Below, piece after piece: positions 1 through 27,366 of a stretch of 31,175 bases of DNA (its first letter is position 1; the number at the start of each line of letters is the position of its first letter). The notes under the pieces are model-generated. The model saw only the letters and a program-made list of their open reading frames with translations. It searched no databases and was not told where the DNA came from. A program made the position numbers and the translations under genes. This stretch comes from a virus (lineage: Duplodnaviria; Heunggongvirae; Uroviricota; Caudoviricetes): positions 1-31,175 of IMG/VR virus record IMGVR_UViG_2565956711_000006, one strand, 5' to 3'.

Positions 1-648
1 ATGGAAACAATCATCACCGTTATCGCCGCTGTTGCTGGGATCGCTTTTTGGGTTGGGCTAATCAATCCCAAATGGGTTTTTATGCCAAATCGAAAGCGCT
101 CATCTGCTATATACTTCGGGGTGTGCCTCTTGGCAGCAATCATAGGTTCAATGGTTGCACCAGTCGCGCCGAAAGCTGTTGCTGAAAATAAACCCCAGCC
201 AGCAGTGACAAACACAGAACAAACACAACCCGCGGCTAAACCCAAAGAACAATTAACAACCACTATCGACTTTTCAGAAGCGACTAATCAACTTCCCCTT
301 GCCTTATCCAAGGCGCTCGGAGATCTGAATCTCACAGTTAAACCAGTCATTTACAACAAAGCCTTAGTAGTTGCATTCAATTTTGACAGCATAGAAGAAC
401 TACAGGCGAAAAGTGCCGTTCAGTCCGTATGCATCAGCTATTTCAATCACGGGGAATCTAACAGGGCTTGGAAGGCTGGTTTATTCGATCATATTTATGT
501 GACTAACGACATTTTAACCAAAGGCTACGTTTTTCAGGGCGGTGAATCTTCGTGTGATATCTGGGGCAAAAAGGCCGGGGATAGTGGCGATCAATATTTA
601 AGTGAAAACCTTACACGATCAAGGTTTGTAGCCATAAACATGAAATAA
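1..648 (+). CDS. hypothetical membrane-anchored protein (two N-terminal hydrophobic helices, Pro/Gln/Thr-rich linker, C-terminal globular domain)
   Basis: ORF from ATG at position 1 to TAA 646-648; hydrophobic segments IITVIAAVAGIAFWVGL and IYFGVCLLAAIIGSMVA; no family recognised; visibly more AT-rich than adjacent phage genes; 5' end may be cut by the window edge. Confidence 0.5.
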   Translation: METIITVIAAVAGIAFWVGLINPKWVFMPNRKRSSAIYFGVCLLAAIIGSMVAPVAPKAVAENKPQPAVTNTEQTQPAAKPKEQLTTTIDFSEATNQLPLALSKALGDLNLTVKPVIYNKALVVAFNFDSIEELQAKSAVQSVCISYFNHGESNRAWKAGLFDHIYVTNDILTKGYVFQGGESSCDIWGKKAGDSGDQYLSENLTRSRFVAINMK

Positions 649-651
649 ATA

Positions 652-678
652 AAGGCCCCATTTAGGGGCCGCTTTTAT
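652..678. terminator. bidirectional intrinsic terminator shared by the convergent ORF 1..648 and ogr
   Basis: GC stem GGCCCC (654-659) / GGGGCC (665-670) with 5-nt loop, followed by a T-run on the plus strand (gcttttat) and on the minus strand (tttatttattt). Confidence 0.6.
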
Positions 679-917
679 AATGCCAGCGATAACTGATCTT
701 CGCCGTGGTGACTTCTTGGAAAAGCTTCTTGTGGCACCATCGCGCCGGGCGCTGGCTGGGTCTGGTTTAGTGAACCGTCTATTTCCGTCATGCTGGTGAA
801 ACAGTACCCGCACAACATATTTTGACACTGGTGATAGCTGCGCCGCACAAGCAAACTCAGCTCAACACTGGTTCTGGTTTTTGCTATTGCACGGCAGCGA
901 GGACAGCGCATTGCCAT
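675..917 (-). CDS. ogr: late-gene transcriptional activator, Ogr/Delta zinc-finger family
   Basis: 80-aa product MAMRCPRCRAIAKTRTSV...YHQCQNMLCGYCF with C-X2-C-X22-C-X4-C spacing as in P2 Ogr (recalled); AGGAGG 7 nt upstream of ATG at 917; lies directly downstream of D as in P2. Confidence 0.8.
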   Translation of the reverse strand: MAMRCPRCRAIAKTRTSVELSLLVRRSYHQCQNMLCGYCFTSMTEIDGSLNQTQPAPGAMVPQEAFPRSHHGEDQLSLAL

Positions 918-965
918 ACGCGGGCCTCCTTTCAGGATTGGTTAATATCAACGCAAGTATAACGC

Positions 966-2084
966 TTAAGACGTTGAATCGTCACTCTCCGCTGTCCAGT
1001 CGTCGATTTTTACTTCCAGTTCCAGCGACGTGGTAAACCCTCCCCCGCCAATATCGTGAACGCACCGCGTTATCGTCCAGTTCCCACTGTCGATCGTGGA
1101 CTTAAAGCCGTAGACGCTGGCGGGCTGTTCCGGGTACAAATCTGCGCGGCCACGCGCCAGGGTGATACTGAACGTCGCCGCTCCACGCTGCAACTCCCGC
1201 CACTTAGCCGCAGCGGCACGCTTCGCCGCCTTTTCCGTCTTGAAGGTTTTACGGATAACAAAAACGTTACCTTCGGCCCCGGCCAGATAATCACCCTCTT
1301 TTTTGCTGGATGCAGGCTCTTTCTTTTTGGCCTGGCTGGTTCGTCGCCTGCGGGTGGTTTTCTTCACGGTAGTGGATGGTTTTTTGCCAAAGTTGAGATC
1401 AAGCCAGTATGCAGTTACGCCTGTGTACGCGTCGCGGTCAGCTACGTTAAACCGATGTTTATCACCGCTTGACCGGACGATCTCGATTACCGGCAGCGGC
1501 TTGCCACTCTGCGTCACTCCCTTGCCCGGCGTGATAAACAGAAGCATACCGTTTTTAATGGTTGCCACCGCGCCCAGCATTTCGGCCATGCGCGTTAAGA
1601 AGCTGATATCTGATTCACTCGTCTGATCAGCGTGGTCTATCTCAATCTTCGCCAGTTCTTCGCTGACGCCCGCACGCAGATCGTAGCGGCTGGCAATGCT
1701 GGCGACCACATCCCCCACGGTAATATCGTGCCAGCTATATTCCCTCTTCACGTTGAAGGTATCGCGGAAATCTGCGCTTCTGGCACTGATCGTTAGCTGG
1801 TCAGGCGGGCCAGCGTGTCCGATTTCGTCAACCGTATACACTCCCTTAAAAACCAATGGATCATTATCCCAGCCCAGCGCCACCGATATCTTTGCGCCGC
1901 GTGATGGTAATGCTACCTGCCCGTCAGCATCATCCAGAGTCAGATCCAGCGTGTCCGCTTCAAAGCCCCGGTTATCTGTCAGAGAAAGGGAGATCAGCCG
2001 GTTATCCAGCGCCGTAAGCTGCTTACCCTCAATCTCAATACTGAACGCCGGGCGCGGCGAATATCGGTTTTCTGTCGTGTCCAT
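966..2084 (-). CDS. D: tail protein gpD (late control gene D family)
   Basis: 372-aa ORF; N-terminus MDTTENRYSPRPAFSIEIEGKQLTALDNRL matches remembered P2 gpD/Mu N-type tail proteins; SD GAAGGAG upstream of ATG 2084; D-ogr order as in P2. Confidence 0.88.
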   Translation of the reverse strand: MDTTENRYSPRPAFSIEIEGKQLTALDNRLISLSLTDNRGFEADTLDLTLDDADGQVALPSRGAKISVALGWDNDPLVFKGVYTVDEIGHAGPPDQLTISARSADFRDTFNVKREYSWHDITVGDVVASIASRYDLRAGVSEELAKIEIDHADQTSESDISFLTRMAEMLGAVATIKNGMLLFITPGKGVTQSGKPLPVIEIVRSSGDKHRFNVADRDAYTGVTAYWLDLNFGKKPSTTVKKTTRRRRTSQAKKKEPASSKKEGDYLAGAEGNVFVIRKTFKTEKAAKRAAAAKWRELQRGAATFSITLARGRADLYPEQPASVYGFKSTIDSGNWTITRCVHDIGGGGFTTSLELEVKIDDWTAESDDSTS

Positions 2085-2151
2085 ATCAACTCCTTCATCA
2101 TGATGGGGTACATCGTCGCCACGCGCGCGCGCATGAACAACGCCCCGTCAT

Positions 2152-2169
2152 TGTTGCAGGTTGCTGACA
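2152..2169. promoter_or_regulatory. TGT-N12-ACA dyad, candidate Ogr-dependent late-promoter activator site, between divergent D and FI
   Basis: tgt tgcaggttgctg aca read directly; centre 2160.5; candidate -10 gatatt at 2207-2212 (FI side) and gatgta on the minus strand at 2109-2114 (D side), each 46.5 bp from the dyad centre. Confidence 0.55.
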
Positions 2170-2241
2170 ACCCTTATTCATCGCATCGGCCTGCCATTGC
2201 CGCAATGATATTCGCAGTCATTAAACTGGCGAGGCAAATAC

Positions 2242-3435
2242 ATGGCCACTAACTACCATCACGGTGTAACCGTCACGGAAACCACCGACCTTAGCACGAT
2301 GATCACCGACATTGATTCGGCGGTGATCGGCGTTGTCTGCACCGCTGATGATGCGGACGAAACAGCGTTCCCGCTGGATACCCCTGTACTGATCACCCGC
2401 GTGGCTAACATGCTGGGCAAGGCAGGTAAAACCGGCACCCTGTTTACCACCCTGAAAGCGATTTCAGACCAGACCAGCCCGCAAACCATTGTGATCCGCG
2501 TTGCTGATGCTGCAAATATCGAACCGCCAGAAGGCGGCACCGCACAGACACAGGATCAACTGGTTATTGGCGGCACCGATGCAAACGGACGCTTTACCGG
2601 CATGTACGCGCTGCTGTCTGCCGAAATGCGCGTAGGCGTGCGCCCGCGTGTGCTGGCTGTTCCCGGTCTTGATACGGAAGCGGTGGCCGCACAACTCGGC
2701 GTCATTGCCGAAAAGCTGCGCGCGTTTGCTTACGTGGCAGCGAACGGCTGCAACAGCATCGCCGAAGTGAAGGAATACCGCGAACAGTTCTCCCAGCGTG
2801 AAATGATGGTTATCTGGCCTAATTTCATCTGCTACGACACCAACGCCGGAGCGAATGCCACCGTGCCCGTGGGTGCCCATGCGGTTGGGATGCGCGCCAA
2901 AATCGACGCAACGCAGGGCTGGCATAAAACCATTTCCAACGTGCCCGTTAATAACGTGCTGGGGATGGATCGGGATATCTATTTCACGTTGCAGGGCACC
3001 GATACCGACGCCGACGAACTGAACGCAGCAGGCGTTACCACGCTGATCAAGCAGGACGGCTACCGCATCTGGGGATCGCGTACCTGCGACGCGGAAACGT
3101 ATATCTTCGAAAGCTATACCCGAACCGCGCAGATCGTTGCGGATACCGTCGCCGAAGCACATTTCGCCTATGTTGATAAACCGCTTACCCCGTCGCTGGT
3201 AAAGGACATTGTGGACGGTATCAATAAGAAGCTGACCTCATATGTGACGGCTGGCAAGCTGCTGGGCGCCCGCTGCTGGTATGACCCGGAACCGAATACC
3301 TCGGAAACCCTGCGCAATGGTCAACTGACCATTAAGTACAACTACACCCCTGTTCCACCGCTGGAAAATCTCAGCCTGGTACAGGAGTTCACCGACGAAT
3401 ATTTCGCTACGTTTTCCAGCGCAGTGAATAACTAA
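2242..3435 (+). CDS. FI: contractile tail sheath protein gpFI
   Basis: 397-aa ORF; MATNYHHGVTVTETTDLSTMI... resembles P2 FI; followed by tube and E/E' genes. Confidence 0.92.
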   Translation: MATNYHHGVTVTETTDLSTMITDIDSAVIGVVCTADDADETAFPLDTPVLITRVANMLGKAGKTGTLFTTLKAISDQTSPQTIVIRVADAANIEPPEGGTAQTQDQLVIGGTDANGRFTGMYALLSAEMRVGVRPRVLAVPGLDTEAVAAQLGVIAEKLRAFAYVAANGCNSIAEVKEYREQFSQREMMVIWPNFICYDTNAGANATVPVGAHAVGMRAKIDATQGWHKTISNVPVNNVLGMDRDIYFTLQGTDTDADELNAAGVTTLIKQDGYRIWGSRTCDAETYIFESYTRTAQIVADTVAEAHFAYVDKPLTPSLVKDIVDGINKKLTSYVTAGKLLGARCWYDPEPNTSETLRNGQLTIKYNYTPVPPLENLSLVQEFTDEYFATFSSAVNN

Positions 3436-3447
3436 CCGGGGGCGCTT

Positions 3448-3963
3448 ATGGCACTGCCTAAGAAACTCAAATATTTCAATATGTTCTTTGACGGGGATAA
3501 CTACTTCGGCATGGTGCCGGAAATCACCCCCGCCAAACTCACCAAAAAAACCGAAGACTACCAGGCGGGCGGTATGCCGGGTTCGGTTGCGGTGGATCTG
3601 GGCTTCGACGCTGGCGCCCTGGATATGGATATCACGCTGGGCGGCATGGATGCAGGGCTAATGAAAAAATGGGGCGTTACCACTGCGGACGGAATGCAGG
3701 TGCGCTTTGCTGGCTCTTACCAGGACGATGCGACCGGCGACGCCGTACCGTGCGAAATCCAGACGCGTGGCCGCTTCACTGAACTGGATCCCGGTTCGGC
3801 AAAGGTTGGGGATGATACTTCGCATAAGTACACCCTGAAAAACACCTATTACAAGCTGACCATCAATAGCGAAGAAATTATCGAAATTGATGTGCTCAAC
3901 ATGATCTACAAAGTTGCCGGTGTGGATGTGCTGGAAAAACACCGCGCTAACATCGGCTTATAA
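3448..3963 (+). CDS. FII: tail tube protein gpFII
   Basis: 171-aa ORF MALPKKLKYFNMFFDGDNYFGMVPEITPA..., P2 FII-like size and position. Confidence 0.9.
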   Translation: MALPKKLKYFNMFFDGDNYFGMVPEITPAKLTKKTEDYQAGGMPGSVAVDLGFDAGALDMDITLGGMDAGLMKKWGVTTADGMQVRFAGSYQDDATGDAVPCEIQTRGRFTELDPGSAKVGDDTSHKYTLKNTYYKLTINSEEIIEIDVLNMIYKVAGVDVLEKHRANIGL

Positions 3964-3977
3964 GGAAACCCGGCACC

Positions 3978-4313
3978 ATGAGCAAGACCAAAGAAAACAC
4001 CGTTATTCTTACCGCCCCTATTACGCGCGGTAAGACCAAAATCACCGAAGTGGCGATCACTTCCGTGCTTAAACAGGCTGGATCACTGCGCGGCTTAAAA
4101 GCCTATGACGTGCTGACGTCCAACTATGACGCGCTGGTTATTCTGCTGCCCCGCGTTACCGCTCCGGCACTAACCGCCGATGAGATTGCCCGAATGGATA
4201 CCTGGGATTTTTGCCAGTTAGCCAACGCGGTGGTTGATTTTTTGCAACCCTCTTCGGATCTGACCGCGACGGATACGGGCAACGAATCATCCGATGCCCC
4301 TGCGAACGCATAG
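3978..4313 (+). CDS. E: tail assembly chaperone gpE (zero-frame product)
   Basis: 111-aa ORF between tube and tape-measure genes; contains slippery TTTTTTG at 4238-4244. Confidence 0.8.
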   Translation: MSKTKENTVILTAPITRGKTKITEVAITSVLKQAGSLRGLKAYDVLTSNYDALVILLPRVTAPALTADEIARMDTWDFCQLANAVVDFLQPSSDLTATDTGNESSDAPANA

Positions 4314-4438
4314 AAGACCTGATGGCAGATATCGCCGTCATATTCCACTGGCGGCCGGTAGAGATGGACGCCATGACGGTACAGGAAATACTGTTATGGC
4401 GTGATCAGGCGGCTGCGCGCAGTGGTGGAGATCACTAA
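3978..4438 (+). CDS. E': tail assembly chaperone gpE+E', predicted programmed -1 frameshift product
   Basis: After T6G (4238-4244) the -1 frame stays open to TAA 4436-4438, encoding ...EDLMADIAVIFHWRPVEMDAMTVQEILLWRDQAAARSGGDH, and ends 1 nt before the tape-measure ATG (4439); canonical chaperone frameshift arrangement. Confidence 0.7.
4238..4244 (+). other. slippery heptamer T TTT TTG for -1 ribosomal frameshift
   Basis: ttttttg read in E frame as ..D-F-L..; the -1 frame is open downstream. Confidence 0.7.
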
Positions 4439-7372
4439 ATGGCAGACCGCAATTTAAATATCAGGGTGGCATTCAGCGCCCTGAATAATATGTCCCGCCC
4501 TGTCAACGCGGCGCGCCAGAGTGCCGCCGCGTTGGCGTCTCAAATCAATCAGACCAAAACCAGCATCAAAGGGCTTGAGCGTCAGGCAACCAGCTTCGAC
4601 CGCCTCACCGCAGCCAATAAAAAAACCACCGAACAACTGGCCCAGGCGAAAGAACAGGCCCGGCAAATGGCGGCGGCTTATGGCCCGTTACGCCAGCGCA
4701 GCGCCGAACAGGTTGCCGCCCTCAATCAGCAACGTGCAGCCATTCGCCAGTTAACCCAGCAGCAGAAAGGTGAGCAGACGCAGCTTAATCAGTTGCGCGC
4801 CAGCTTCTACAGCGAAGGCATTGCGATCCGCAGCGCCAGCCGGGCGACGGAACAGATCAACCAGCGCACTGCGCAATACAATCGCCAGCTTGCCGAACAG
4901 CAGCGACGGCTTGACGCTGTAAACCAGGCGCAGGCCCGTTACAGCCGCGCCAAAGAAACCGGCGAAAAGATGATGAGCGGGGGAATGAAAACCGCCGCAG
5001 TGGGTGCGGCAACCCTCGCACCTGTCGCCGCTGCGGTGAAATCCTACAGCAGTCTTGAAGACGCGATGAAGGGCGTAGCCAAACAGGTAAACGGCTTGCG
5101 TGACGACAGCGGCAACCGCACCCCGCAATATGAAGAAATGCAGCGGGCGATCATGGATGCCAGCGAAAAGCTGCCAATGGCAAACGGTGCTGTTGACTAT
5201 GCCGCCCTGGTCGAAGGCGGCGCACGTATGGGCGTCGCAAACAGCGATGATCCGTGGGAAAAACAAAAAGCCGATCTGCTGTCTTTCGCCAGCATGGCGG
5301 CAAAGGCTTCTGTTGCCTTCGAACTTCCCGCCGACCAGCTTTCTGAAAGTCTCGGTAAGATTGCCGGGCTGTATAAAATCCCAACCCAAAACATTGAACA
5401 GTTAGGCGACGCCATAAACTACCTGGACGATAACGCGAAGTCGAAAGGCTCCGATATTATCGACGTGCTCCAGCGCGTTGGCGGACTTGCCAGCCAACTG
5501 GATTACAAGCAAGCCGCCGCGCTGGGTTCCACCTTTCTGACGCTTGGATCACCTGCCGAAGTTGCCGCCAGCGCAACCAATGCAATGGTGCGCGAACTAT
5601 CGATCGCCACAGTACAAAGCGATAAATTTTTTGGTGCGCTGGATGAAATCGGCGTCAATGCTGAAAAAGTCCAGAAAAGCATGTCAGTGGACGCGATGGG
5701 CACAATCATTTCAGTGCTGGAAGCGTCCAAAAAACTTGCACCAGATAAGCAGGTAGCCAACCTTACTCAAATTTTCGGTAAAGAGTTCGGCGATGATGCG
5801 CAGAAACTTGCGAACAACCTGCCCGAACTACGCCGCCAAATAGAACTGACGCAGGGCGCAGCCGCCAAAGGTTCTATGAATCGGGAATCTGATATCAATA
5901 AAGATTCCCTTTCAGCTCAGTGGCAACTGACCAAAACCGGCGCGGTTAACGCATTGAGTTCAGCAGGGGAAACGCTCCGCGAACCGCTGATGGATATCAT
6001 GCTTACCGTCAGTAAGGTAGTTGGCAGCGTCCGCCGCTGGGTTGAGGCAAATCCGGCTCTGGTTGGCTCAATCATGAAAGTCACCGCAGCCATAGGCGCG
6101 TTGCTGGTTGTCGTGGGTGGCCTGATGCTGACCATCGGCGCAGTGCTCGGCCAGATGGCACTTGTTCGCCTCAGCTTCACCACGTTGGCCGGTGAAGGAG
6201 GAATAGCGCGGCTGACTGGTGGAGTAATGCGCCTGGGTGGTGCATTCCAGTGGCTTGCTGGCTCGCCTATGCAGGCATTGTTAAGCGCCGGTCGCATGGT
6301 ATTCTGCCCGCTTATCACGCTACTGGCTGGCATTTCTGCACCCGTCTGGGGGCTGATTGCTCTCTTTGCTGCGGCAGCAGTGGCCGTCATTAAATTCTGG
6401 GAACCAATACAGGCATTTTTCACTGGTTTCTTTAACGGCATCATGACGGGCTTACAACCTGTATTTGATGCTTTCAACGCTGTTTTCGCTCCATTAGCCC
6501 CAATCTTTGACGCGATAGGCTCCGCTATTAGCGGCGTTTGGGATTGGTTTACAAAATTGCTTGAACCGATCAAATTTTCCAGCGATGCGCTAGAAACTTG
6601 CACTACTGTTGGCGAAACATTTGGGAGGGTTCTGGGTACTGCAATAAGCGGTTTGCTTTGGCCGCTACAAAAACTGATGGAGGGTGTCGGCTGGGTACTG
6701 GAGAAACTTGATCTAATTCCTGCTGGACTTGATGCAGCAAACGCCAAAGCAGAAAGCCTTAAAAAAGATCCCGTTGTCTGGGAGTGGGATCCGCAGCAAA
6801 AGAAAATGGTTAAAAAGGATTGGCACTGGTCGCCGGATAAACCAAACCAACCTAAACCGCCAAAACCACCAATAACTCCGAAGCCAGTTGGCATCCCAGA
6901 CCTTATGGGAGCGCCAAACTTAACGCCGAAGATGAGCAAGAGTCTGGATAAAATCGCAGACAACACGGGAAAAATGGCGGCAAAAGACGGCCCCGGCGAA
7001 ATCGTCTTCAAGAATAAGCAGCCCTATATCCCGATCCGGGGCGGATATTCGGAACCGCTTAAGCAGGCGCAGCGCCAGCTACCATCCCTTACCGATTGGG
7101 TGACGCAGCAGACCGGATCGCTGATCGCTTCCGTTACACCGTGGCAGGTTGAGAAGCCCGCCGCACGGGTTCCCGTTTCGGCGTCGCCCTCTGCGGCTTC
7201 CGTCGCTGCGCTAATGCCTGCGCCGGGTGGCGATGTATATAACCTTAACTTCGACTTTAGCGGCCAGAAACTGGATGAAGAAACCATTATCAGGCGCGTG
7301 CGCGAAGAACTTGCGTTAGCGAAGCAGCAAGCCGACCGGCGCAAGCGTTCCCAACTGACCGATCACGTCTAA
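4439..7372 (+). CDS. T: tail tape measure protein gpT
   Basis: 977-aa ORF, coiled-coil-rich N-terminus, hydrophobic central region, Pro-rich segment; position after E/E'. Confidence 0.9.
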   Translation: MADRNLNIRVAFSALNNMSRPVNAARQSAAALASQINQTKTSIKGLERQATSFDRLTAANKKTTEQLAQAKEQARQMAAAYGPLRQRSAEQVAALNQQRAAIRQLTQQQKGEQTQLNQLRASFYSEGIAIRSASRATEQINQRTAQYNRQLAEQQRRLDAVNQAQARYSRAKETGEKMMSGGMKTAAVGAATLAPVAAAVKSYSSLEDAMKGVAKQVNGLRDDSGNRTPQYEEMQRAIMDASEKLPMANGAVDYAALVEGGARMGVANSDDPWEKQKADLLSFASMAAKASVAFELPADQLSESLGKIAGLYKIPTQNIEQLGDAINYLDDNAKSKGSDIIDVLQRVGGLASQLDYKQAAALGSTFLTLGSPAEVAASATNAMVRELSIATVQSDKFFGALDEIGVNAEKVQKSMSVDAMGTIISVLEASKKLAPDKQVANLTQIFGKEFGDDAQKLANNLPELRRQIELTQGAAAKGSMNRESDINKDSLSAQWQLTKTGAVNALSSAGETLREPLMDIMLTVSKVVGSVRRWVEANPALVGSIMKVTAAIGALLVVVGGLMLTIGAVLGQMALVRLSFTTLAGEGGIARLTGGVMRLGGAFQWLAGSPMQALLSAGRMVFCPLITLLAGISAPVWGLIALFAAAAVAVIKFWEPIQAFFTGFFNGIMTGLQPVFDAFNAVFAPLAPIFDAIGSAISGVWDWFTKLLEPIKFSSDALETCTTVGETFGRVLGTAISGLLWPLQKLMEGVGWVLEKLDLIPAGLDAANAKAESLKKDPVVWEWDPQQKKMVKKDWHWSPDKPNQPKPPKPPITPKPVGIPDLMGAPNLTPKMSKSLDKIADNTGKMAAKDGPGEIVFKNKQPYIPIRGGYSEPLKQAQRQLPSLTDWVTQQTGSLIASVTPWQVEKPAARVPVSASPSAASVAALMPAPGGDVYNLNFDFSGQKLDEETIIRRVREELALAKQQADRRKRSQLTDHV

Positions 7373-7382
7373 GGGCAATATC

Positions 7383-7832
7383 ATGATGATGATTCTGGGG
7401 ATGTTCCCCTTTTCACTGCAAACCACGCCTTACCAGAGTGCGAATAAAACCAACTCATGGCGGCACGTCAAAAACGATCGCGTGGGGAAATCCCCGCGCT
7501 ATCAGTTCATCGGCGCTGATGAAGAACCGTTCGTACTCAGCGGCACGCTGTACCCCGAAATAAGCGGCGGTGATGTGTCGCTTGTCATGCTGGAAACTAT
7601 GGCTTTTTCCGGGCGCCCGTGGCCCCTGATTGAAGGCACGGGCAGGATCTACGGCATGTATGTAATTGAGCAGATTACGCAAAACCGGACGGAATTTTTT
7701 AAGGACGGGAAGGCAAAGAAAATTGATTTTACGCTCAACCTGAAACGGGTAAGCGAGGACATACGGGAAAAGCTGGCGGAAATCACCAATGATGATGTGC
7801 TGTCTATGGTGAAAGCGGGGGTGAATTTCTAA
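7383..7832 (+). CDS. U: tail protein gpU
   Basis: 149-aa ORF MMMILGMFPFSLQTTPYQSANKTNSWRHV... immediately after T. Confidence 0.85.
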   Translation: MMMILGMFPFSLQTTPYQSANKTNSWRHVKNDRVGKSPRYQFIGADEEPFVLSGTLYPEISGGDVSLVMLETMAFSGRPWPLIEGTGRIYGMYVIEQITQNRTEFFKDGKAKKIDFTLNLKRVSEDIREKLAEITNDDVLSMVKAGVNF

Positions 7833-7943
7833 CTTTATTTTTTATGGCCAATACGTTCATTGTTGGCAGTGTGGTACCGAAATCTTCGGGCACCGTCACT
7901 TTTAACCGTGCTACAGCACGGTCATTTATGGCGGTGCTGTAGC

Positions 7944-7969
7944 TTCTATCAAAGGTTGGTTTGGGAGAA
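7944..7969. repeat. hix/gix-like 26-bp crossover site (left end of invertible tail-fibre segment)
   Basis: ttctatcaaagg tt ggtttgggagaa; inner 14 bp (7956-7969) is the exact reverse complement of 9791-9804. Confidence 0.7.
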
Positions 7970-8290
7970 GCGGCAAAACGGAATGTGGGAACAGGGGAAA
8001 ATCAGATACCTGATATGTCATCATATGCATCAGGTTCAGGCTGGCGAAAAATGCCAGATGGTTCAATTGAACAGTGGGGACGAATTAGTTTTCCTGGTGA
8101 ACACGGGCCTGTATCCGCCAATGTTTCATTCCCGATTCCATTTACACAGACACCGGGCATTGTAATTGTGTGCGATGGTGGTTTCGGGGGCGGGAATATG
8201 TGGGGGGCGACCAACTGGAGCACTACCGGCTTCATAGCTCACTGCAATTATGGTCTTGAAGGTGGTGCGTTTTTCGCTAAGGGCTGGTAA
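7958..8290 (+). CDS. alternative tail-fibre C-terminal exon (Hv'), silent in this orientation, no start codon of its own
   Basis: Frame open from the crossover site: [16 protein letters not shown]...[20 protein letters not shown]; shares LGLGE junction with H; stop TAA 8288-8290 overlaps the G' ATG. Confidence 0.7.
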
Positions 8291-8733
8291 TGATGAAATA
8301 TCTGTACGTAAACAACCTGGCATATCCTTACGAACTTCAGTCTCTTTATGTTGAAAAAGGTGAATGGCCTGAAGAAAAAGGTGTTGATATAGACGAAGTA
8401 ATTTTCAGGGAATATTTCTATGACACACCACCAGAAGGAAAATACAGATGTGTTGGAGAAGATGGACTGCCTGCATGGGCAGATATTCCTCCACCAACAC
8501 GTGAAGAACAAATTGCATCAGCCGAAACTAAAAAGCAGCAATTGATTAACCAGGCCAACGAATACATCAACAGTAAACAATGGCCAGGTAAAGCATCAAT
8601 TGGTCGTCTGAAAGGTGAGGAACTGGCGCAATATAATTTGTGGCTGGATTATCTGGACGCACTGGAGCTGGTCGATACTTCCAGTGCGCCAGATATTGAA
8701 TGGCCTACGCCTCCGGCAGTTCAGGCCAGATGA
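8290..8733 (+). CDS. alternative tail-fibre assembly chaperone (G'/Tfa')
   Basis: 147 aa; C-terminal LDALELVDTSSAPDIEWP parallels IDAVTATDTSTAPDVIWP of the minus-strand G; converges with and overlaps the 3' end of G. Confidence 0.8.
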   Translation: MMKYLYVNNLAYPYELQSLYVEKGEWPEEKGVDIDEVIFREYFYDTPPEGKYRCVGEDGLPAWADIPPPTREEQIASAETKKQQLINQANEYINSKQWPGKASIGRLKGEELAQYNLWLDYLDALELVDTSSAPDIEWPTPPAVQAR

Positions 8734-9307
8734 CATCCGGCGCGGTGCTGGTATCTGTTGCCGTCACCGCGTCAATGTAATTCAGCACAGCGTTAAGTCG
8801 GGTGTTTTCTGTCTGCATCAGCTTCCGCCCGGCCTGTAATTTCAGTTGAATCAGACTAATGGAAGCCATTGCAGTATCAATCAGTGACTGACGCTGTGCT
8901 TCTGCCGCGCCTACTGCGGCGCTATGCTGTGCCTCGGTATCCGTCACCCATTTCTCACCATCCCATTCATCGTATGGCGTTAATGGGGCGATAGTGGTTG
9001 TATTTTCAGGGTAATCACCCGGAACTGTGATTTCTTTGGTATCTCCCGTTTCGGTACTATAGACAACTTCACCGCGATGGTCTGGCACATATTCCCATGA
9101 ATTTAAATCTACAGAGCGACAGATTGCATAACCAGCTTTATGTGTACCTGGTGCATCCAGACAGGAACATGCCGGGATACCGACGCCGACAGCGAGATAT
9201 TCAGTTGATGTAGAAATATATTCCCGCGTTTCGCCATCATAGTTATGTACGATGATTTCCCCATCATTTAAAGCGTAACCGTCTTTTCCCAAAATAGCCT
9301 GTTCCAT
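8705..9307 (-). CDS. G: tail-fibre assembly chaperone gpG (expressed orientation)
   Basis: 200-aa ORF starting immediately after the H stop; conserved Tfa C-terminal motif. Confidence 0.85.
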   Translation of the reverse strand: MEQAILGKDGYALNDGEIIVHNYDGETREYISTSTEYLAVGVGIPACSCLDAPGTHKAGYAICRSVDLNSWEYVPDHRGEVVYSTETGDTKEITVPGDYPENTTTIAPLTPYDEWDGEKWVTDTEAQHSAAVGAAEAQRQSLIDTAMASISLIQLKLQAGRKLMQTENTRLNAVLNYIDAVTATDTSTAPDVIWPELPEA

Positions 9308-10852
9308 TTATGCAGCCCTCACAATGTAGTTAAATGCAATGTTTCGCGGGCTACCATCACCGGCGCCGGAACTGACATGATTGGTTCTATCCATTCGTTT
9401 ACTGTCATTTGTTGTTCCACTCCCATCCTTCCACGAATACAATAACCCGCCATCGCCAATGCTCAACTGCACCGCAAATACGGATGAACCGGATGAATAA
9501 ACATCTCCAGCCATGAGTGGGTTCCCTGTCCATCCATGCATTTCATGGTTATGTTCAAGGATAGATGCTGCCTGACTTGAAAGCAGCAGTCTCGCGGAAT
9601 CAACACCTCGCCCATCATCCCACCCGCGAATAAACTCACCGCGCAAATCCGGTAATTTTAACTTTGGGTAAGCCTTTGCCAGTTTTGGGTACTCTTCGGC
9701 AGAAAAAGGTGCACCGTTGCATTTCAGCCAGCCTGTTGGTGGTGTGGCTGAAGGCCACGGAACAGGCACACCAACGGGTAACGCTGAGCCTTCTCCCAAA
9801 CCAAGGTATTGGAGAATGCCGTTAACTGTCTTTCCCGATAAATCAGTTAAAGTGCTATCAAGCGGCTGCTTACCCGCCAGCGCATTCGTTACAGTGGTGG
9901 CAAAGTTTGGATCATTTCCCAGCGCTGCCGCCAATTCATTCAGCGTGTCCAGTGCAGCCGGGGATGATGCTACCAGTGCAGCAATTGCTGATTTCACAAA
10001 TTCCGTTGTGGCAATCTGCGTATTATTCACTGTCTGCGCCGCAGTAGGTGCGGTGGGTGTTCCGGTCATAGCTGGGCTTGCCAGCGGAGCTTTCAACGCA
10101 AGAGCGTTGTTAATGGTTGCACTGAAATTAGGATCATTGTTGATTGCAGTAGCAATTTCTTTCAGTGTATCCAACGTGGCGGGCGCACCTCCAATCACAG
10201 CAACCAACGCCGCCTGAACAAATGCGGTATTCGCCAGCTGTGTGGAGTTATTACCAGCCGTAGCAGTCGGCGCTGTAGGCGTTCCCGTCAGGGCCGGGCT
10301 TGCCTTTGGTGCATATTGTTTATGAGGGTCTGCCGCTGCGATGTGCGCCGCCAGTTGCTGATCTACGAAGGCTTTAACCTGGATTATCTGGTCATCAACA
10401 TACTGACGAGTCGCCAGTACTACCGAAGGGTCAATTTTCAGCGTCACGGCGGCGGTGCTGCTGACAATCAGGATCATGCGTACAACCTGTACGCGCCCGC
10501 TTCCCTCCTGTAACTGCGGCTTATACGTTTCCGCACAGTTGGCTACGGCAATCATATCGCCGTCTTTATCGAATAAACCGATTTCACGGATCCACCACCC
10601 GCCCTCGTCTTCAGGTATCACCTGCTCGGCAATAATCTGGTTGGCGTTATTCGGGTCAATGCTCAGACTATTAAGCGGCTTGCGGCGCAGCTCATGAACC
10701 AGCGCCGTTTGTGCCGGGTTCGGCGTCGGCAACACGCCGTTACCATCGCCTACAGCCATCTTGGTGATTTCAACCTGCGCACCCAATGCCGTGGCATTTG
10801 CCAGTTTCGCCGCGCCCACATTGGTTAGCACGGCATAATATTTAGTCGCCAC
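9308..10852 (-). CDS. H: tail fibre protein gpH (constant N-terminal part plus currently joined variable tip Hv)
   Basis: N-terminal region resembles P2 H (..AVLTNVGAAKLANATALGAQVEITKMAVGDG..); C-terminal tip has tail-collar-like motifs (PWP..GWLKCNGAPFS..LPDLRGEFIRGWDDGRGVD); the track starts at TTG 10873, but GTG at 10852 with GGAG upstream aligns better with the P2 H start. Confidence 0.85.
   Translation of the reverse strand: MATKYYAVLTNVGAAKLANATALGAQVEITKMAVGDGNGVLPTPNPAQTALVHELRRKPLNSLSIDPNNANQIIAEQVIPEDEGGWWIREIGLFDKDGDMIAVANCAETYKPQLQEGSGRVQVVRMILIVSSTAAVTLKIDPSVVLATRQYVDDQIIQVKAFVDQQLAAHIAAADPHKQYAPKASPALTGTPTAPTATAGNNSTQLANTAFVQAALVAVIGGAPATLDTLKEIATAINNDPNFSATINNALALKAPLASPAMTGTPTAPTAAQTVNNTQIATTEFVKSAIAALVASSPAALDTLNELAAALGNDPNFATTVTNALAGKQPLDSTLTDLSGKTVNGILQYLGLGEGSALPVGVPVPWPSATPPTGWLKCNGAPFSAEEYPKLAKAYPKLKLPDLRGEFIRGWDDGRGVDSARLLLSSQAASILEHNHEMHGWTGNPLMAGDVYSSGSSVFAVQLSIGDGGLLYSWKDGSGTTNDSKRMDRTNHVSSGAGDGSPRNIAFNYIVRAA
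9791..9816. repeat. hix/gix-like 26-bp crossover site inside H (right end of invertible segment)
   Basis: ttctcccaaacc aa ggtattggagaa, near-perfect palindrome; encodes ILQYLGLGE in the H frame; resembles remembered hixL/gix sites. Confidence 0.7.
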
Positions 10853-11456
10853 TTGCGATCTCCACGGTGTCAATTAAATGGATTGCCGCCCCGGTGTAAT
10901 CATCACCGCCCACGGCTATGGTTTCAGGAAAATACGGGTACACGGTTAGCGTATCGCCGGAATAACTGCCCGCGCCGATATACAGATCGCCGGTTGTTTG
11001 CAGGTGAAGAGACATTCCCAGCATATGACGGCTGCACGGCTTCACATCGGCGATCAGGCGTTCAAGTTCCTGATAGGTTTCTTCACTAATGCCCTGGTCT
11101 TCCACGCCAATATCCAGCGTGAAGGTGCCCGGTGCGGTGTCGATGTTCCACCACTCGTTAACCCGGATGAAGAAGCCGAACGGCTCCACAACCCGGCGCA
11201 TGGCGCCCGTTGTACCCTTGTACTTATGCAGGTAAAACGCATCGGCCACCGCCTTTCGTTTTGTGTTTATCGGCCAGGCCTCATCCCAGCGATCAACGGA
11301 GAAGGCCCACGCCAGATAGGGCAACAGATCAGCCCGACACGTCCACGGGTTCCACAACTGGCGCAGCGGCACGGGCACTTCACCCAACGACGCACAGACG
11401 CGCGCGGCGACGCGCTCCATTCGGCTGGCGCTGGGTGGTAACAGGTCATTACTCAT
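10842..11456 (-). CDS. I: baseplate assembly protein gpI
   Basis: ORF after J; ATG at 11456 (MSNDLLPP...) overlaps the J stop; position and size fit P2 I. Confidence 0.8.
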   Translation of the reverse strand: MSNDLLPPSASRMERVAARVCASLGEVPVPLRQLWNPWTCRADLLPYLAWAFSVDRWDEAWPINTKRKAVADAFYLHKYKGTTGAMRRVVEPFGFFIRVNEWWNIDTAPGTFTLDIGVEDQGISEETYQELERLIADVKPCSRHMLGMSLHLQTTGDLYIGAGSYSGDTLTVYPYFPETIAVGGDDYTGAAIHLIDTVEIASGD

Positions 11457-12360
11457 CGTAACCACCCACCGTTATGGTGTATTCGGTGCAGTGCGATGCC
11501 TGGTAGTCACTCAGCACAATATCCGCAACAGGCTGCGCCAGTTCCACGCGCTGGACGCCTTCGACGTGCAGGGCGGCGTAGATAGCTGAAAGACGGATAT
11601 CGCGCCCTAAGCGATTCTGCGCGGCAATATACGCCTGTAACTGCTGTTCCGATGCCTGCCGGACGGGTTCAGCTTCCGGCCCCGGATAGATGTAAAGCGT
11701 TGCATCAATCTGATACGGCACGATCTCCGCAGACTGCACCGTTACCCTGTCGGCCACCGGGCGCACTTCTTCATCGTTCAGGGCAGCAGCGACCACGGAA
11801 AGCAGATCATCGCTGGCCGTTCCGTCACCTTCGCGCGACAGCACCGAAATGGTGACGCAGGCAGGCGTAGGACTCACCGCCGAAATATCAGCTACGCGCC
11901 CGTCTGCTGAACGCCCCCAAAATTCATACGCCGCAGTTGGCCCGGCCACGCTCAGACCTTCAAAAGCCTGCTGGGTACGCGTGCGTAAATCTGGGTCTGA
12001 CTCCATCACGGCTTCAATTGGCGGTGTAACGCTGTCGTCTTCTTCCTGAATGGTCAGACGTTCAACGTTGAAATTGACCGCCAGATTATCCAGATCGCTA
12101 TCCGTGGAATAAGCCAGCATCACCGCGCGGGCTGCTTCATTCACCCGCTGGCGCAACAGCAATTCGCGATAGCAATTCTCTTCCAGCAGCATGGTGATCG
12201 GCTCCGATTCAAGCTCAAGCGTGCGGGCGATCTCTTCCTGCTCGTCTTCCGGGTACATCGCAATAAATGCCGCCTTGCGCTGCGCGAAAAGCGTTTCGAA
12301 GTCCAGCGGTTCAACCACCACGGGCGGCGGTAGCTGCGATAAATCGATCGTGCCGCTCAT
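11449..12360 (-). CDS. J: baseplate assembly protein gpJ
   Basis: 303-aa ORF MSGTIDLSQLPPPVVVEPLDFETLFAQRKAAF...; ATGA overlap with W stop. Confidence 0.88.
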   Translation of the reverse strand: MSGTIDLSQLPPPVVVEPLDFETLFAQRKAAFIAMYPEDEQEEIARTLELESEPITMLLEENCYRELLLRQRVNEAARAVMLAYSTDSDLDNLAVNFNVERLTIQEEDDSVTPPIEAVMESDPDLRTRTQQAFEGLSVAGPTAAYEFWGRSADGRVADISAVSPTPACVTISVLSREGDGTASDDLLSVVAAALNDEEVRPVADRVTVQSAEIVPYQIDATLYIYPGPEAEPVRQASEQQLQAYIAAQNRLGRDIRLSAIYAALHVEGVQRVELAQPVADIVLSDYQASHCTEYTITVGGYDE

Positions 12361-12719
12361 GCCTGGCCCCTCAATGTAATATCAGCGTTAAATGGCGTCT
12401 GATTGTCGGTGCGATTGGCCTGGATAGTGGCAACCAGCCGACCGGCACCCGGCGCGCTCAGGGTGATACTGGTCAGAGAGATCCGCGGTTCCCATAAATA
12501 CAGGGCGCTGTAGATGGCAGACATAACGCGCAGCTTCGTTATGGCGTTATCGACCGGCTGATCTATCAGGTTGAAAAGCTGTGAACCGTAAGCGCGGCGC
12601 ATTACACGGGAACCGATCGGCGTTAACAGAATATCGCCGATAGACTGCGCTATATGCTCGTTGTCGGTGATGGCATGGCCTGAACTGGCATTCATGCCGC
12701 TGTAACGGACTGTACTCAT
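12357..12719 (-). CDS. W: baseplate protein gpW
   Basis: 120-aa ORF, ATGA overlap with V stop; W-like position and size. Confidence 0.82.
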   Translation of the reverse strand: MSTVRYSGMNASSGHAITDNEHIAQSIGDILLTPIGSRVMRRAYGSQLFNLIDQPVDNAITKLRVMSAIYSALYLWEPRISLTSITLSAPGAGRLVATIQANRTDNQTPFNADITLRGQA

Positions 12720-13345
12720 ACCGGGCCACCTGTATTACTACCACCGGACTGGACGCCGCTATGTTTGTGAGAATGGACAACGACACCATTAGACGAAAGC
12801 GATCCACCTGAATGGGTAATATTGCCCTTCATTTCCCCGCCCTTTTGCACTTCCAGCGTGGCGGTGATCAGCTTGTTGGTGCAGACCACTTCCGGCGTGT
12901 CCAGGGTAACGCGCGTATCTGCCTTGACCGTTACCACCGGCACGGTGGCGGTAATGGATTCCGACGCGGTGACGCTTGCCGTTTTCACCCCGCTGACAAC
13001 CAGCGCGCTGGCCTCCGGGTCATATGAGATACGGGCGCCATCCGGGTGCAGGATCACGCAGGTGGTAGCGCCAGCATCTGGCGGCGGTGCGTCTTCGCTG
13101 TAAAGGCTTCCGGCAATGAATGCCGTTTCCATCTCACCGCAGGGGCACAAAATATAAACCTGTTCGCCCACTGTCGGCGCCCACCACGTCACGGCTTCAC
13201 CGGCGCGCGGCACTGCCCAGCGGATCCAGTCGGTTTTGTTCTCGCCGGTTTCGACGCGTGCAAGATACTTTTTCGTGTCCACTTCCAGCACGGTGCCAAT
13301 GCGGGCGAGATTGCAGATAAGGCGATAGAGTTCGTTTAAATTCAT
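12716..13345 (-). CDS. V: baseplate spike/central hub protein gpV
   Basis: 209-aa ORF MNLNELYRLICNLARIGTVLEVD...; first gene of V-W-J-I-H-G operon. Confidence 0.85.
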   Translation of the reverse strand: MNLNELYRLICNLARIGTVLEVDTKKYLARVETGENKTDWIRWAVPRAGEAVTWWAPTVGEQVYILCPCGEMETAFIAGSLYSEDAPPPDAGATTCVILHPDGARISYDPEASALVVSGVKTASVTASESITATVPVVTVKADTRVTLDTPEVVCTNKLITATLEVQKGGEMKGNITHSGGSLSSNGVVVHSHKHSGVQSGGSNTGGPV

Positions 13346-13483
13346 AGTGCTGACTGTTTCCCGTGGTGCCGGTTACGCTGTCCGGCGTCGCTTCCGCCCG
13401 GTAGCAGGCTTTACGACCGTTTCGGCTTTTGGGTTATGCAGTCAGTATCAGGAGTCGCGCGCGCGCAAACAACGCGGCGCCAT

Positions 13484-13501
13484 TGTGGCAGGTTGGTGAC
13501 A
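13484..13501. promoter_or_regulatory. TGT-N12-ACA dyad, candidate Ogr box for the V-operon late promoter
   Basis: tgt ggcaggttggtg aca; 20 of 22 nt identical to the FI-proximal element (cattgtNgcaggttgNtgacaa); candidate -10 gatact on the minus strand at 13444-13449. Confidence 0.55.
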
Positions 13502-19798: not shown

Positions 19799-19887
19799 GG
19801 TGACAAAGCTCCGGGTTGGTAAGCGATTGATATTAACCAGTGCCCCAATCATTCCCTTTGCGGCCGGAAGGCGCAAAGCCTTCACTT

Positions 19888-19905
19888 TGTCGGACTCAGG
19901 CGACA
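19888..19905. promoter_or_regulatory. TGT-N12-ACA dyad in the divergent O / P late-promoter region
   Basis: tgt cggactcaggcg aca; centre 19896.5, which is 98.5 bp from the O ATG and 55.5 bp from the P ATG. Confidence 0.5.
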
Positions 19906-19951
19906 ACCAGCGGCGATATTGTTGCGCGCGCGAGCGCGATAGCCTGTTGCC

Positions 19952-22822: not shown

Positions 22823-22924
22823 CCTCAACCCACCACGGCGAACCGAAAACGACGTAGCAGCGAGGCGCAGCGGCGCGAAAATCGGCGCAGATAATACCGA
22901 CCCTATCCCACCCCTCAGCGCGCG

Positions 22925-22943
22925 CTCATTCCCCCGCCTCGCC
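22925..22943. other. candidate cos (cohesive end) site
   Basis: The minus strand reads GGCGAGGCGGGGGAATGAGC; the first 12 nt match my recollection of the P2 19-nt cohesive end (GGCGAGGCGGGGAAAGCAC); lies just past the Q 3' end as in P2. Confidence 0.5.
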
Positions 22944-23092: not shown

Positions 23093-23809
23093 TCACTGGC
23101 CTGCGTTAACCATGGCGGCGCGGCAGGCGTTCCATCCAATTTTTTGCTGAACGGTGCCGAATTGGCACAGCATTGCAGCGACCGCCATGAATGAGCCGAA
23201 CTCGTAATAGTTTGCCGGATCATTTCCCTGGTAATGACCCCCAACATGTTCAGCCCACTGCCCAAGTGTCCAGTTGAAGCGTTCGCTATGTTGCTCGTCC
23301 GGCAGCGATACCGGCGCTGGCTCAGTTTTCCAGCCGTGATACCACATAAATGCACAGTAAGCGGCAACATCCCGGGGGTCTCCCTTAGCTATATGCTGTT
23401 GAAAGTCTGCCTGGCATTGGCTTGGCCAACCATCTTGTTTCCAGTCCGCGTCATAGCCATATTTTAATTGAGCCTTGTACAACTTCTCAGCCAGGGCGGA
23501 GCTGAAGTCGGTCACCAGTTTCAGCGTATCAGGATGAAGCTCTGCCGGAACTACCGGCGCTGGCGTGGCGGAGTATAGCGGGGCGATATTTCTTTCCAGA
23601 TCGGTAATTACGCTCCATACAGGAATAGATTCAACACCCTGCTTAGCCATATCGCGGTAACTGTCTGCATAGGCCAGCACGGGATTTCGCCCTGACTCCT
23701 CCGCTTCGAGCGATGCCAGCGCGATACGCGCCAGCTCCTCCACCTCATCAAAGTTATATCCGCCGCCTGCTGCAATTTTTGCTGCGCGTTCTCTGGTAAT
23801 TTTGCTCAT
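23093..23809 (-). CDS. hypothetical protein, 238 aa, downstream of replication gene A
   Basis: Start at ATG 23809 (MSKITRERAAK...) with SD AGGAG; no family recognised; last gene before cos. Confidence 0.6.
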   Translation of the reverse strand: MSKITRERAAKIAAGGGYNFDEVEELARIALASLEAEESGRNPVLAYADSYRDMAKQGVESIPVWSVITDLERNIAPLYSATPAPVVPAELHPDTLKLVTDFSSALAEKLYKAQLKYGYDADWKQDGWPSQCQADFQQHIAKGDPRDVAAYCAFMWYHGWKTEPAPVSLPDEQHSERFNWTLGQWAEHVGGHYQGNDPANYYEFGSFMAVAAMLCQFGTVQQKIGWNACRAAMVNAGQ

Positions 23810-26395: not shown

Positions 26396-27366
26396 TAAAA
26401 CGCCTCCATATCGTCAAACGTGCCTGCCGCAACCATCGCGTTGTAAGTCGCATCACCCATCACGGCGCCACAATCAGGGCAACCGCCGCCGTAACGCCCG
26501 CAGCAGTCGCAGACAGGCAGCACGCCGATCACTTCTTTGGCCTTCTGGCGGTTGTCTTTGTCAGTGCTGACGGAACGTTGCACGCTGATTTCGTGCATCT
26601 TGAAAGGCTGATAAATCGCGCGGGTGGCTTCGGTGTCGCTGTTGGAAATGACAACCTTCACGCCATGCTTACGGTTAACTTCCAGCAGTGCCTGGACTAA
26701 CTGGCGGTGGTTGTCTTCCGTGAATGGTTCGGTGTGGTATTGGGTAAAATCGGCTGTTTTGCTTTCAGGCAGGTAAGGCGGATCGCAGTAAACGAGAACA
26801 TCGCCACCCGTGACGACCTGTAGAGAACGCTGGAACGGCGCGCAAAGAAATATTGCCTTTGTATCGTTGGCCTTTTCGGCAAACAGGCGGATTTCATTTT
26901 CAGGAAAGTAGACGCTCTTATACTTGCCAAACGGCACGTTAAAGCCGGTCTTACGGCTGTAACGGCATAAGCCGTTATAACCGTGGCGGTTCAGATACAG
27001 GAATTGAGCAGCACGCATGATGCGCGCCATTTCGACGCCATAACGCAACCCACAGCTTTTTACCGTACATACCTGCTTATTGAACGCGGCGCGGACTTCG
27101 TTGTACCCCTGCGGGCTGTTCTTGCTGTTGAACAGTTCGCGGGCCGCATCGATCACTAAGTCCGGGTAACGGGTGACTTTCCGATAAAGGTTAATAAGAT
27201 CCGGGTTGATATCAGCCAGCACATAGCGGCGGTACTCAGTCGCCAGAAATACCGATGCGCCGCCTACGAACGGTTCGATCAGGCAGTCGGCTTTAGGAAG
27301 GTGCGGCAGCAGGTCAGGAAGGACACGGGTTTTACCCCCTGCCCATTTGATGAACGGGCGGATCAT
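26395..27366 (-). CDS. dam: DNA adenine methyltransferase (Dam family) with Cys-rich C-terminal extension
   Basis: MIRPFIKWAGGK N-terminus, FVGGASV AdoMet motif, DPPY catalytic motif; extra C-terminal about 45 aa with CDCCGRYGGGCPDC. Confidence 0.85.
   Translation of the reverse strand: MIRPFIKWAGGKTRVLPDLLPHLPKADCLIEPFVGGASVFLATEYRRYVLADINPDLINLYRKVTRYPDLVIDAARELFNSKNSPQGYNEVRAAFNKQVCTVKSCGLRYGVEMARIMRAAQFLYLNRHGYNGLCRYSRKTGFNVPFGKYKSVYFPENEIRLFAEKANDTKAIFLCAPFQRSLQVVTGGDVLVYCDPPYLPESKTADFTQYHTEPFTEDNHRQLVQALLEVNRKHGVKVVISNSDTEATRAIYQPFKMHEISVQRSVSTDKDNRQKAKEVIGVLPVCDCCGRYGGGCPDCGAVMGDATYNAMVAAGTFDDMEAF

Follow-up and report, generated by a model that had tools for sequence, protein, structure and literature searches.

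An inverted FI-U operon is a fixed trait of SEN4/5-type P2-like phages and may place D and ogr under a shared Ogr site

Results

A complete P2-like prophage carries an inverted FI-U operon

The stretch of DNA analyzed here (positions 1-31,175 of IMG/VR record IMGVR_UViG_2565956711_000006; hereafter, the window) is one complete, 31,175-bp P2-like (Peduoviridae) prophage in which the tail operon FI-FII-E/E'-T-U is inverted relative to that of phage P2. In the P2 record (NC_001895), V-W-J-I-H-G, FI-FII-E-E'-T-U-D, and ogr all lie on one strand, as an earlier note on this DNA had correctly stated, and FI to D form one operon transcribed from the promoter pF. This canonical P2/186 layout, with FI to D on one strand and co-oriented with H and G, was not found in the window. 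There, FI, FII, E/E', T, and U (2242-7832) occupy the plus strand and are flanked on both sides by minus-strand genes: D (966-2084) and ogr (675-917) to the left, and G, H, I, J, W, and V (8705-13345), followed by the rest of the tail, the lysis genes, and the head genes, to the right (Table 1). P and Q are again on the plus strand, followed by the early region, and the integrase gene forms the right end of the window. The chromosome of E. coli EC09 matches the window at 100% identity, with the prophage sitting downstream of fieF.

The strands of the open reading frames (ORFs), together with Pfam matches for all seven of FI, FII, E, T, U, D, and ogr, bear out what the note had read from the letters alone: FI-U opposes H/G and D/ogr, D diverges from FI instead of closing the F operon, and U adjoins the silent half of an invertible fibre segment, ending 124 nucleotides (nt) before its left crossover site. 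All seven genes are intact. The Pfam match for E fell slightly under the cut-off (23.1 vs 25 bits), and its identity is backed by its position and by a -1 frameshift slip site, TTTTTTG (T6G), at 4238-4244; the E' frame stays open up to 4438, directly before the start of T at 4439. Read from its translation, Ogr has a C4 zinc finger (C5, C8, C31, and C36) of the form CX2CX22CX4C, the motif of Ogr/Delta activators cited in PMC3931495. We conclude that the inversion relative to P2 is real. It is a fixed, ordinary lineage trait of one P2-like branch and not a new kind of system, and it is still a genuine departure from the canonical order.

The same order is found in isolated phages, complete genomes, and many genera

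Positions 673-11500 of the window are collinear with the Salmonella phages SEN4 and SEN5 (Senquatrovirus) at 93% identity, and the SEN annotation places the genes on the same strands, in the order ogr, D, then FI-U, then the fibre genes, then I, J, W, and V. Over positions 1-11500, the window and SEN4/5 share 93.2% nucleotide identity over 69% coverage, and the D proteins of the window and SEN5 are 99.7% identical. Two traits of the SEN4/5 type, a D gene divergent from FI over a spacer of ~150-180 bp and a U 3' end facing the fibre module, are both present in the window. Genera are delimited, in the general practice of the International Committee on Taxonomy of Viruses (ICTV), at nucleotide identities of 70% or more across whole genomes. 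In its fibre and early regions, the window differs from SEN4/5, whose fibre module is another one (fibre, macro-domain protein, and chaperone) and has no invertible segment. We place the window in the SEN4/5-type branch of the Peduoviridae. SEN4/5 form plaques and myovirus particles (PMC5261728), and plaque-forming myoviruses with the inverted order imply that the arrangement is functional. The same order is found in E. coli phage PhiR44_2 and in Klebsiella phage Kp4876-2 (Reginaelenavirus).

An assembler that flipped a block that is really co-oriented with its neighbours would yield the same layout, and the note had by implication treated the arrangement as an anomaly or a possible misassembly. 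That suspicion did not survive the comparison with other genomes. A 756-bp probe across the D/FI junction matched without a break in 31 of the 5426 complete E. coli genomes, and 28 records were collinear with the window over at least 80% of positions 600-8000. The order recurs, moreover, in the isolated phages SEN4/5 and PhiR44_2, in a circular replicon, and at ~50 loci of other genera. Because the junction is contiguous in 31 independent complete genomes, misassembly is ruled out for all practical purposes, and we give an artefact virtually no credence. The circular replicon, of 32,330 bp and found in one strain, has the inverted order, is 95.5% identical to the window, and is most simply an excised phage genome.

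For a wider view, we surveyed loci by searching with the D protein of the window against one genome per bacterial species. This gave 52 loci, spread over more than 20 Enterobacterales genera, whose D proteins are 60%-100% identical to that of the window; the inverted order was counted at 47-50 loci in this identity range. At every locus holding both D and FI, the two genes were divergent, with V-W-J-I-H upstream on the D strand. Canonical order was found in the reference genomes of the five nearest other genera, Peduovirus, Felsduovirus, Duonihilunusvirus, Piscesmortuivirus, and Tigrvirus, and D identity to these canonical-order relatives is 55% for SEN8/Fels-2-like phages, 51% for Yersinia vB_YenM_201.16, 49% for P2, 47% for Aeromonas LPM4, and 42% for Burkholderia phi52237. 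The earlier note had left its reading to turn on whether the arrangement is the norm among reference P2-like genomes; it is so for the SEN4/5 sublineage and not for the canonical genera.

Four survey loci, in Yersinia ruckeri, Erwinia amylovora, Brenneria, and Providencia (L043, L044, L047, and L051), retain D or a fragment of D together with ogr and lack a neighbouring FI-U block. The V gene of Y. ruckeri is fused beside a D that is truncated. All four loci look like deletion remnants of this prophage type.

The inversion appears to be single, old, and fixed

In neighbor-joining trees, the inverted loci formed one clade with all five canonical references outside it in 100 of 100 bootstraps, for D and for FI alike, and the window grouped with SEN5, Salmonella s1, and Citrobacter NCU1. 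Read from these trees, the simplest history would be a single ancient inversion, with the canonical order ancestral.

We weighed two other histories. Since P2-like phages are mosaic, the FI-U block could have come from a different phage and been inserted in the opposite orientation, and in the window the 3' end of U does contain a recombination joint, while the fibre module has been swapped. The trees of FI and D, however, recover the same inverted clade, each with full bootstrap support, and similar groupings within it, which indicates that the block and its neighbours diverged together. FI, FII, U, and D are also comparably identical to their P2 counterparts (only 44-53%). A foreign origin of the block is thus very improbable.

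The other history holds that the inversion is recent or reversible, the block being flipped by a Hin/Gin-type invertase or through flanking inverted repeats. A fibre switch with cix-like sites does adjoin the block, relatives have an invertase gene between U and that switch, and the left breakpoint of the block lies beside the place of that gene. Yet neither inverted repeats nor cix-like sites flanking FI-U were found: exact inverted repeats between 2060-2260 and 7800-7990 reach 7 nt at most, no cix-like site lies near 2085-2241, and the window has no invertase. A block that flips would also be expected in both states, but FI-U had one orientation in all loci and genomes checked, and the inverted set is monophyletic. 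Finally, D has a conserved putative promoter of its own, described below, which argues that the inversion has long been fixed. A reversible switch therefore seems to us hardly credible, and a single old inversion remains our reading.

Fels-2-like phages (Felsduovirus SEN8) and Yersinia Duonihilunusvirus have an invertible H/G segment like that of the window, with an adjoining Hin/Gin-family invertase gene. In these phages the order is canonical and the invertase gene lies directly upstream of FI, whereas in the inverted clade it lies, where present, beside the 3' end of U, and it has been lost in the window.

A single Ogr-type dyad lies between D and FI

The 157-bp spacer between D and FI holds exactly one copy, almost central, of TGT-N12-ACA (TGTTGCAGGTTGCTGACA in the window), the consensus of Ogr-dependent late promoters (PMC3931495). 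Measured from its centre, the D ATG is 76.5 nt away and the FI ATG 81.5 nt; in P2, 83 nt separate the centre of the pF site from the FI ATG. On either side, a -10-like hexamer begins 37 nt past the dyad (GATATT on the FI side, GACGAT/GATGTA on the D side), and the starts of the two predicted promoters, which we call P_F and P_D, would by spacing fall 55-60 nt from the dyad centre. In P2, likewise, TGT-N12-ACA boxes lie ~55 nt upstream of late transcription starts.

The bare dyad is not informative by itself. The window has six copies of TGT-N12-ACA against 5.8 expected, so the argument rests on position, on a composite motif, and on conservation. With regard to the composite motif, the D face is identical to the V late promoter of the same prophage at 42 of 47 positions (z 19.5), in a stretch that spans the dyad, a GTTGTT element, and an alternating GCGCGCGCG block. 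By this alignment, we take the D face to be a close paralogue of the V promoter. A dyad followed by GCGCGCG within 12-30 nt is found in the window only at the heads of D, V, and P, with 0.08 occurrences expected by chance. With regard to conservation, members of the clade keep a dyad at a distance of ~80 nt from the FI ATG despite changes in its sequence, as in the GTTCTC...GAGAAC palindrome of Providencia. Automatic alignment of the spacers on their best palindrome proved noisy, and the information content derived from it plays no part here. An alternating-CG block is present in 42 of 42 distinct D/FI spacers (~3.9 in shuffles), on the D side in 41 of them, at loci whose D proteins have diverged to ~60% identity.

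Alternating GCGCGCGC(GC) blocks lie between the Ogr dyad and the -10 at the D, V, and P promoters and not at FI or O. Apart from these three, the window has one further copy, at 22918-22925 in the region downstream of Q. As to function, the block may act as a spacer, bind a second factor, or respond to supercoiling.

The use of one site in two directions has precedent in this family. The P2 record annotates a single 'activator binding site; pO, pP promoters', with transcription starts 55-56 nt either side of it, and phage Smp131 has been described as having one activator site for divergent late promoters, as in P2 pP/pO (PMC3931495). Given the P2 annotation, one dyad for two divergent late promoters is an established design of the family. 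The D/FI spacer of the window has the same geometry as P2 pP/pO, and the P/O spacer of the window has a single dyad too. P2 uses the shared dyad at P/O only, whereas the window is predicted to have a second one at D/FI. We also asked if the D/FI spacer had arisen as a copy of the P/O spacer and rejected this, the two aligning through the short GC block alone (z 3.0).

By the longest ORFs, the O/P spacer itself measures ~99 bp (19853-19951), and its dyad centre, 19896.5, is 55.5 nt from the P ATG, so that either the predicted P transcript is nearly leaderless or the true P and O starts lie further in. The O start according to PGAP corresponds to window position 19798, and in the P2 record transcription of V starts on the first V coding base.

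D might instead be independent of the shared Ogr box, being served by an Ogr-independent sigma-70 promoter while the dyad acts on FI only. The weak D-side -10, the difference in sequence between the FI and D faces, and a sigma-70-like match directed toward D at 2232-2205 (TCGCCA-16-TATCAT) are all compatible with this. On the other hand, a generic sigma-70 scan of the window performed at chance level (13 found vs 10.4 expected), and D is a virion protein needed late, as are the products of FI-U. The D face, besides, has the composite motif of the V and P late promoters, which occurs nowhere else in the window; its identity to P_V (the 42 of 47 positions above) includes the dyad; and the D-side block recurs throughout the 42 spacers. 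We therefore consider an Ogr-independent D unlikely, though it is the strongest of the alternatives weighed here, and in our reading the D/FI spacer would be a second Ogr-dependent control region that works in both directions.

D and ogr may form a late unit of their own

The gap from D to ogr is 48 nt and has no hairpin, and a strong hairpin with a T run follows ogr, so the two genes are probably co-transcribed. In P2, ogr also follows D and is followed by a terminator, annotated as 'terminator for ogr transcript and F operon', and by analogy the hairpin at 654-670 is likely to be the end of a D-ogr transcript. A generic terminator scan of the window was, like the sigma-70 scan, at chance level, and the hairpin at 654-670 is the one feature for which we relied on these scans.

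In the model that we favor, the 5.6-kb FI-FII-E/E'-T-U operon would have inverted once, long ago, with one breakpoint a little upstream of the pF activator site and the other at the U|D junction, and would then have become fixed. D would have come off the F operon, and, once separated from it, would need its own promoter. Since the Ogr site is a dyad, one box can most likely serve both directions. The box centred at 2160.5 would thus activate RNA polymerase on both faces, driving P_F into FI-U and P_D into D and then ogr, the latter as a short late unit ending at 654-670. Late transcription would then comprise five units, compared with four in P2: bidirectional pairs at P/O and D/FI and a unidirectional one at V. 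From the promoter sequences, D/ogr is most likely the fifth of these units, expressed from the shared bidirectional activator site.

Several points weigh against this model. Binding of Ogr, both start sites, and read-through from D into ogr are all predictions from sequence. The D-side -10 (GACGAT/GATGTA) matches the sigma-70 consensus poorly, and the FI side has none of the GC block of D, V, and P, so that the two faces of the dyad are not equivalent. The survey was seeded with the window's own D, an ascertainment bias that bears on the clean split in which a D at least 60% identical goes with inverted order, and the trees were built by neighbor joining on tblastn segments. One member of the clade, in Trabulsiella odontotermitis (NZ_JNGH01000101.1; L050), has undergone a further rearrangement. 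Having set these points against the evidence above, we hold with good confidence to the explanation as a whole, namely that the window is a SEN4/5-type prophage with an old, fixed inversion and a shared Ogr box driving both D-ogr and FI-U.

In the T. odontotermitis locus, I and the N-terminal part of H lie on the FI-U strand beside an invertase gene, and J is ~10 kb away, beyond D.

More tentatively, a breakpoint just upstream of the dyad may have given the stranded D an activator site at once and created an autoregulatory unit of ~1.5 kb (Ogr acting on P_D, and P_D expressing D and then ogr). We regard this last step as possible and somewhat doubtful. In P2, by comparison, ogr stands at the end of a 6.5-kb operon, whereas in the window it would belong to the short D-ogr unit of ~1.5 kb.

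The 3' end of U borders a fibre switch without an invertase

The fibre switch beyond U is bounded by perfect 15-nt inverted repeats, TTGGTTTGGGAGAAG at 7956-7970 and its reverse complement at 9790-9804, and the only cix-like sites in the window, at 7956-7969 and 9791-9804, coincide with them. Its silent half lies on the plus strand next to U and consists of H'c (7961-8290) and G' (8290-8733). No invertase gene was found in the window, which is the whole prophage, or in 20 kb of its left flank. Among relatives, a Hin/Gin-family recombinase gene lies between U and the switch at survey loci L062 (10352-10933), L012, L013, L024, L039, L040, L046, and L050. The fibre segment, unlike FI-U, occurs in both orientations among relatives; E. 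coli ECONIH4 has the same invertase-less junction as the window, and its fibre segment points the other way. Flipping must then occur in trans, unless the two states are older than the loss of the invertase.

At 7790-7955, the window departs from SEN5, Salmonella s1, and Citrobacter: roughly the final dozen codons of U, together with what follows them, have been replaced. Those three have a GC-rich terminator, GCGGGC-loop-GCCCGC, after U, which the window does not have, and a 51-bp element found after U in relatives is inverted at 7886-7936. This joint looks like the scar of a fibre-module exchange or of a deletion that overshot into U. The sequence at 7826-7965 folds into three hairpins (z -5.8), and its T run is weak, so read-through from U into the co-oriented silent H'c/G' is possible.

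Other features of the prophage

PGAP annotates ogr in EC09 as a truncated pseudogene (window 837-917). The ORF at 675-917 is intact with its four zinc-finger cysteines, its sequence is 100% identical to that of SEN5, and a relative of 95.5% identity has an intact 243-bp ogr in its annotation; the truncation that PGAP reports is probably an artefact of annotation.

The ORF at 1-648 encodes a protein with a hydrophobic N-terminal segment and no Pfam match. Strain 2020N21-246-1 encodes the same protein (WP_016246766.1) in its circular episome, at a place between ogr and the integrase/attP region, and the ORF is phage cargo, not a host gene. In the early region (23285-23809 and 26410-27366), three genes, one hypothetical and two for DNA adenine methylases, are truncated pseudogenes according to PGAP, whereas both methyltransferases of SEN5 are full-length; partial decay of this region of the prophage is possible. 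Scans of the window for Rfam families and tRNA genes gave no match.

Table 1. Coordinates of genes and control elements in the window. Promoter cores, start sites, and the terminator are predictions.
Feature	Position	Strand	Remarks
Cargo ORF, 215 aa	1-648	+	
Terminator-like hairpin GGCCCC-loop-GGGGCC with T run	654-670	-	Just after ogr
ogr, late activator	675-917	-	Pfam Ogr_Delta, E 1.5e-13; 80 aa
D, baseplate hub / 'late control D'	966-2084	-	Pfam Phage_GPD; points away from FI
Divergent D/FI spacer, 157 bp	2085-2241	.	
Predicted P_D core	2109-2132	-	Alternating GCGCGCGCGC block 2123-2132; -10-like GACGAT/GATGTA 2117-2109; predicted start ~2102-2105
Ogr-type dyad TGTTGCAGGTTGCTGACA (TGT-N12-ACA)	2152-2169	.	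Centre 2160.5
Predicted P_F -10 GATATT	2207-2212	+	Predicted start ~2219-2221, by spacing; cf. P2 pF start 57-59 nt from site centre
FI, tail sheath	2242-3435	+	Pfam
FII, tail tube	3448-3963	+	Pfam Phage_tube
E, tail assembly chaperone	3978-4313	+	Pfam; E+E' product 3978-4438
T, tape measure	4439-7372	+	Pfam
U, tail protein	7383-7832	+	Pfam P2_GpU
Structured spacer after U	7833-7955	+	Three hairpins; 10-bp stem at 7909-7942
Tail fibre assembly (G)	8705-9307	-	Pfam
Tail-collar fibre (H)	9308-10873	-	Pfam
V late promoter, P_D paralogue	13457-13501	-	Dyad 13484-13501; GC block 13457-13466
P/O shared dyad and P-side GC block	19888-19931	+	Dyad 19888-19905; GC block 19924-19931

Discussion

The prophage shares with P2 and 186 (Peduovirus) its gene set, the T6G frameshift in E/E', and a zinc-finger Ogr activator. 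It differs from P2 in how the late genes are divided: FI-FII-E-T-U-D form one operon co-oriented with V-G in P2, which has four late units, whereas in the window FI-U is inverted, D-ogr stands apart, and five units are predicted. We also considered the xenorhabdicin locus as a possible instance of the same arrangement and rejected it, its sheath gene appearing next to the fibre region.

The inverted order has been visible in public, ICTV-classified genomes since 2015-2017, and Casjens and Grose reportedly put SEN4/5 in a P2-like subcluster of their own in 2016. That source, the likeliest one to discuss gene order, was outside the reach of our literature searches on Peduoviridae synteny and genus names, which returned no comment on it. 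The words inversion, orientation, and synteny are absent from the searched parts of the SEN4/5 paper (PMC5261728). The observation is thus correct, but it concerns a trait of an already-sampled lineage. The sole part that is possibly undescribed is the reading of the D/FI promoters, which would be a small extension of the pP/pO precedent.

If D-ogr is indeed a short autoregulatory unit, it could sharpen or advance the late switch. The hypervariable fibre cassette would be flanked by the ends of two operons that converge on it, a position in which an exchange of modules does no harm to any promoter, and the prophage would offer a worked example of symmetric activator sites making operon inversions viable. 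D-ogr as a fifth late unit on the second face of the pF site would be a modest, testable extension of the P2 model of late transcription, and it opens no long-standing question.

P2 is the textbook template for this family, and annotation pipelines or readers expecting H-G-FI-...-D-ogr on one strand would flag the layout described here as an error or a rearrangement. It is instead standard in a widespread Enterobacterales sublineage with viable isolates, which matters for annotation and for comparative phage genomics.

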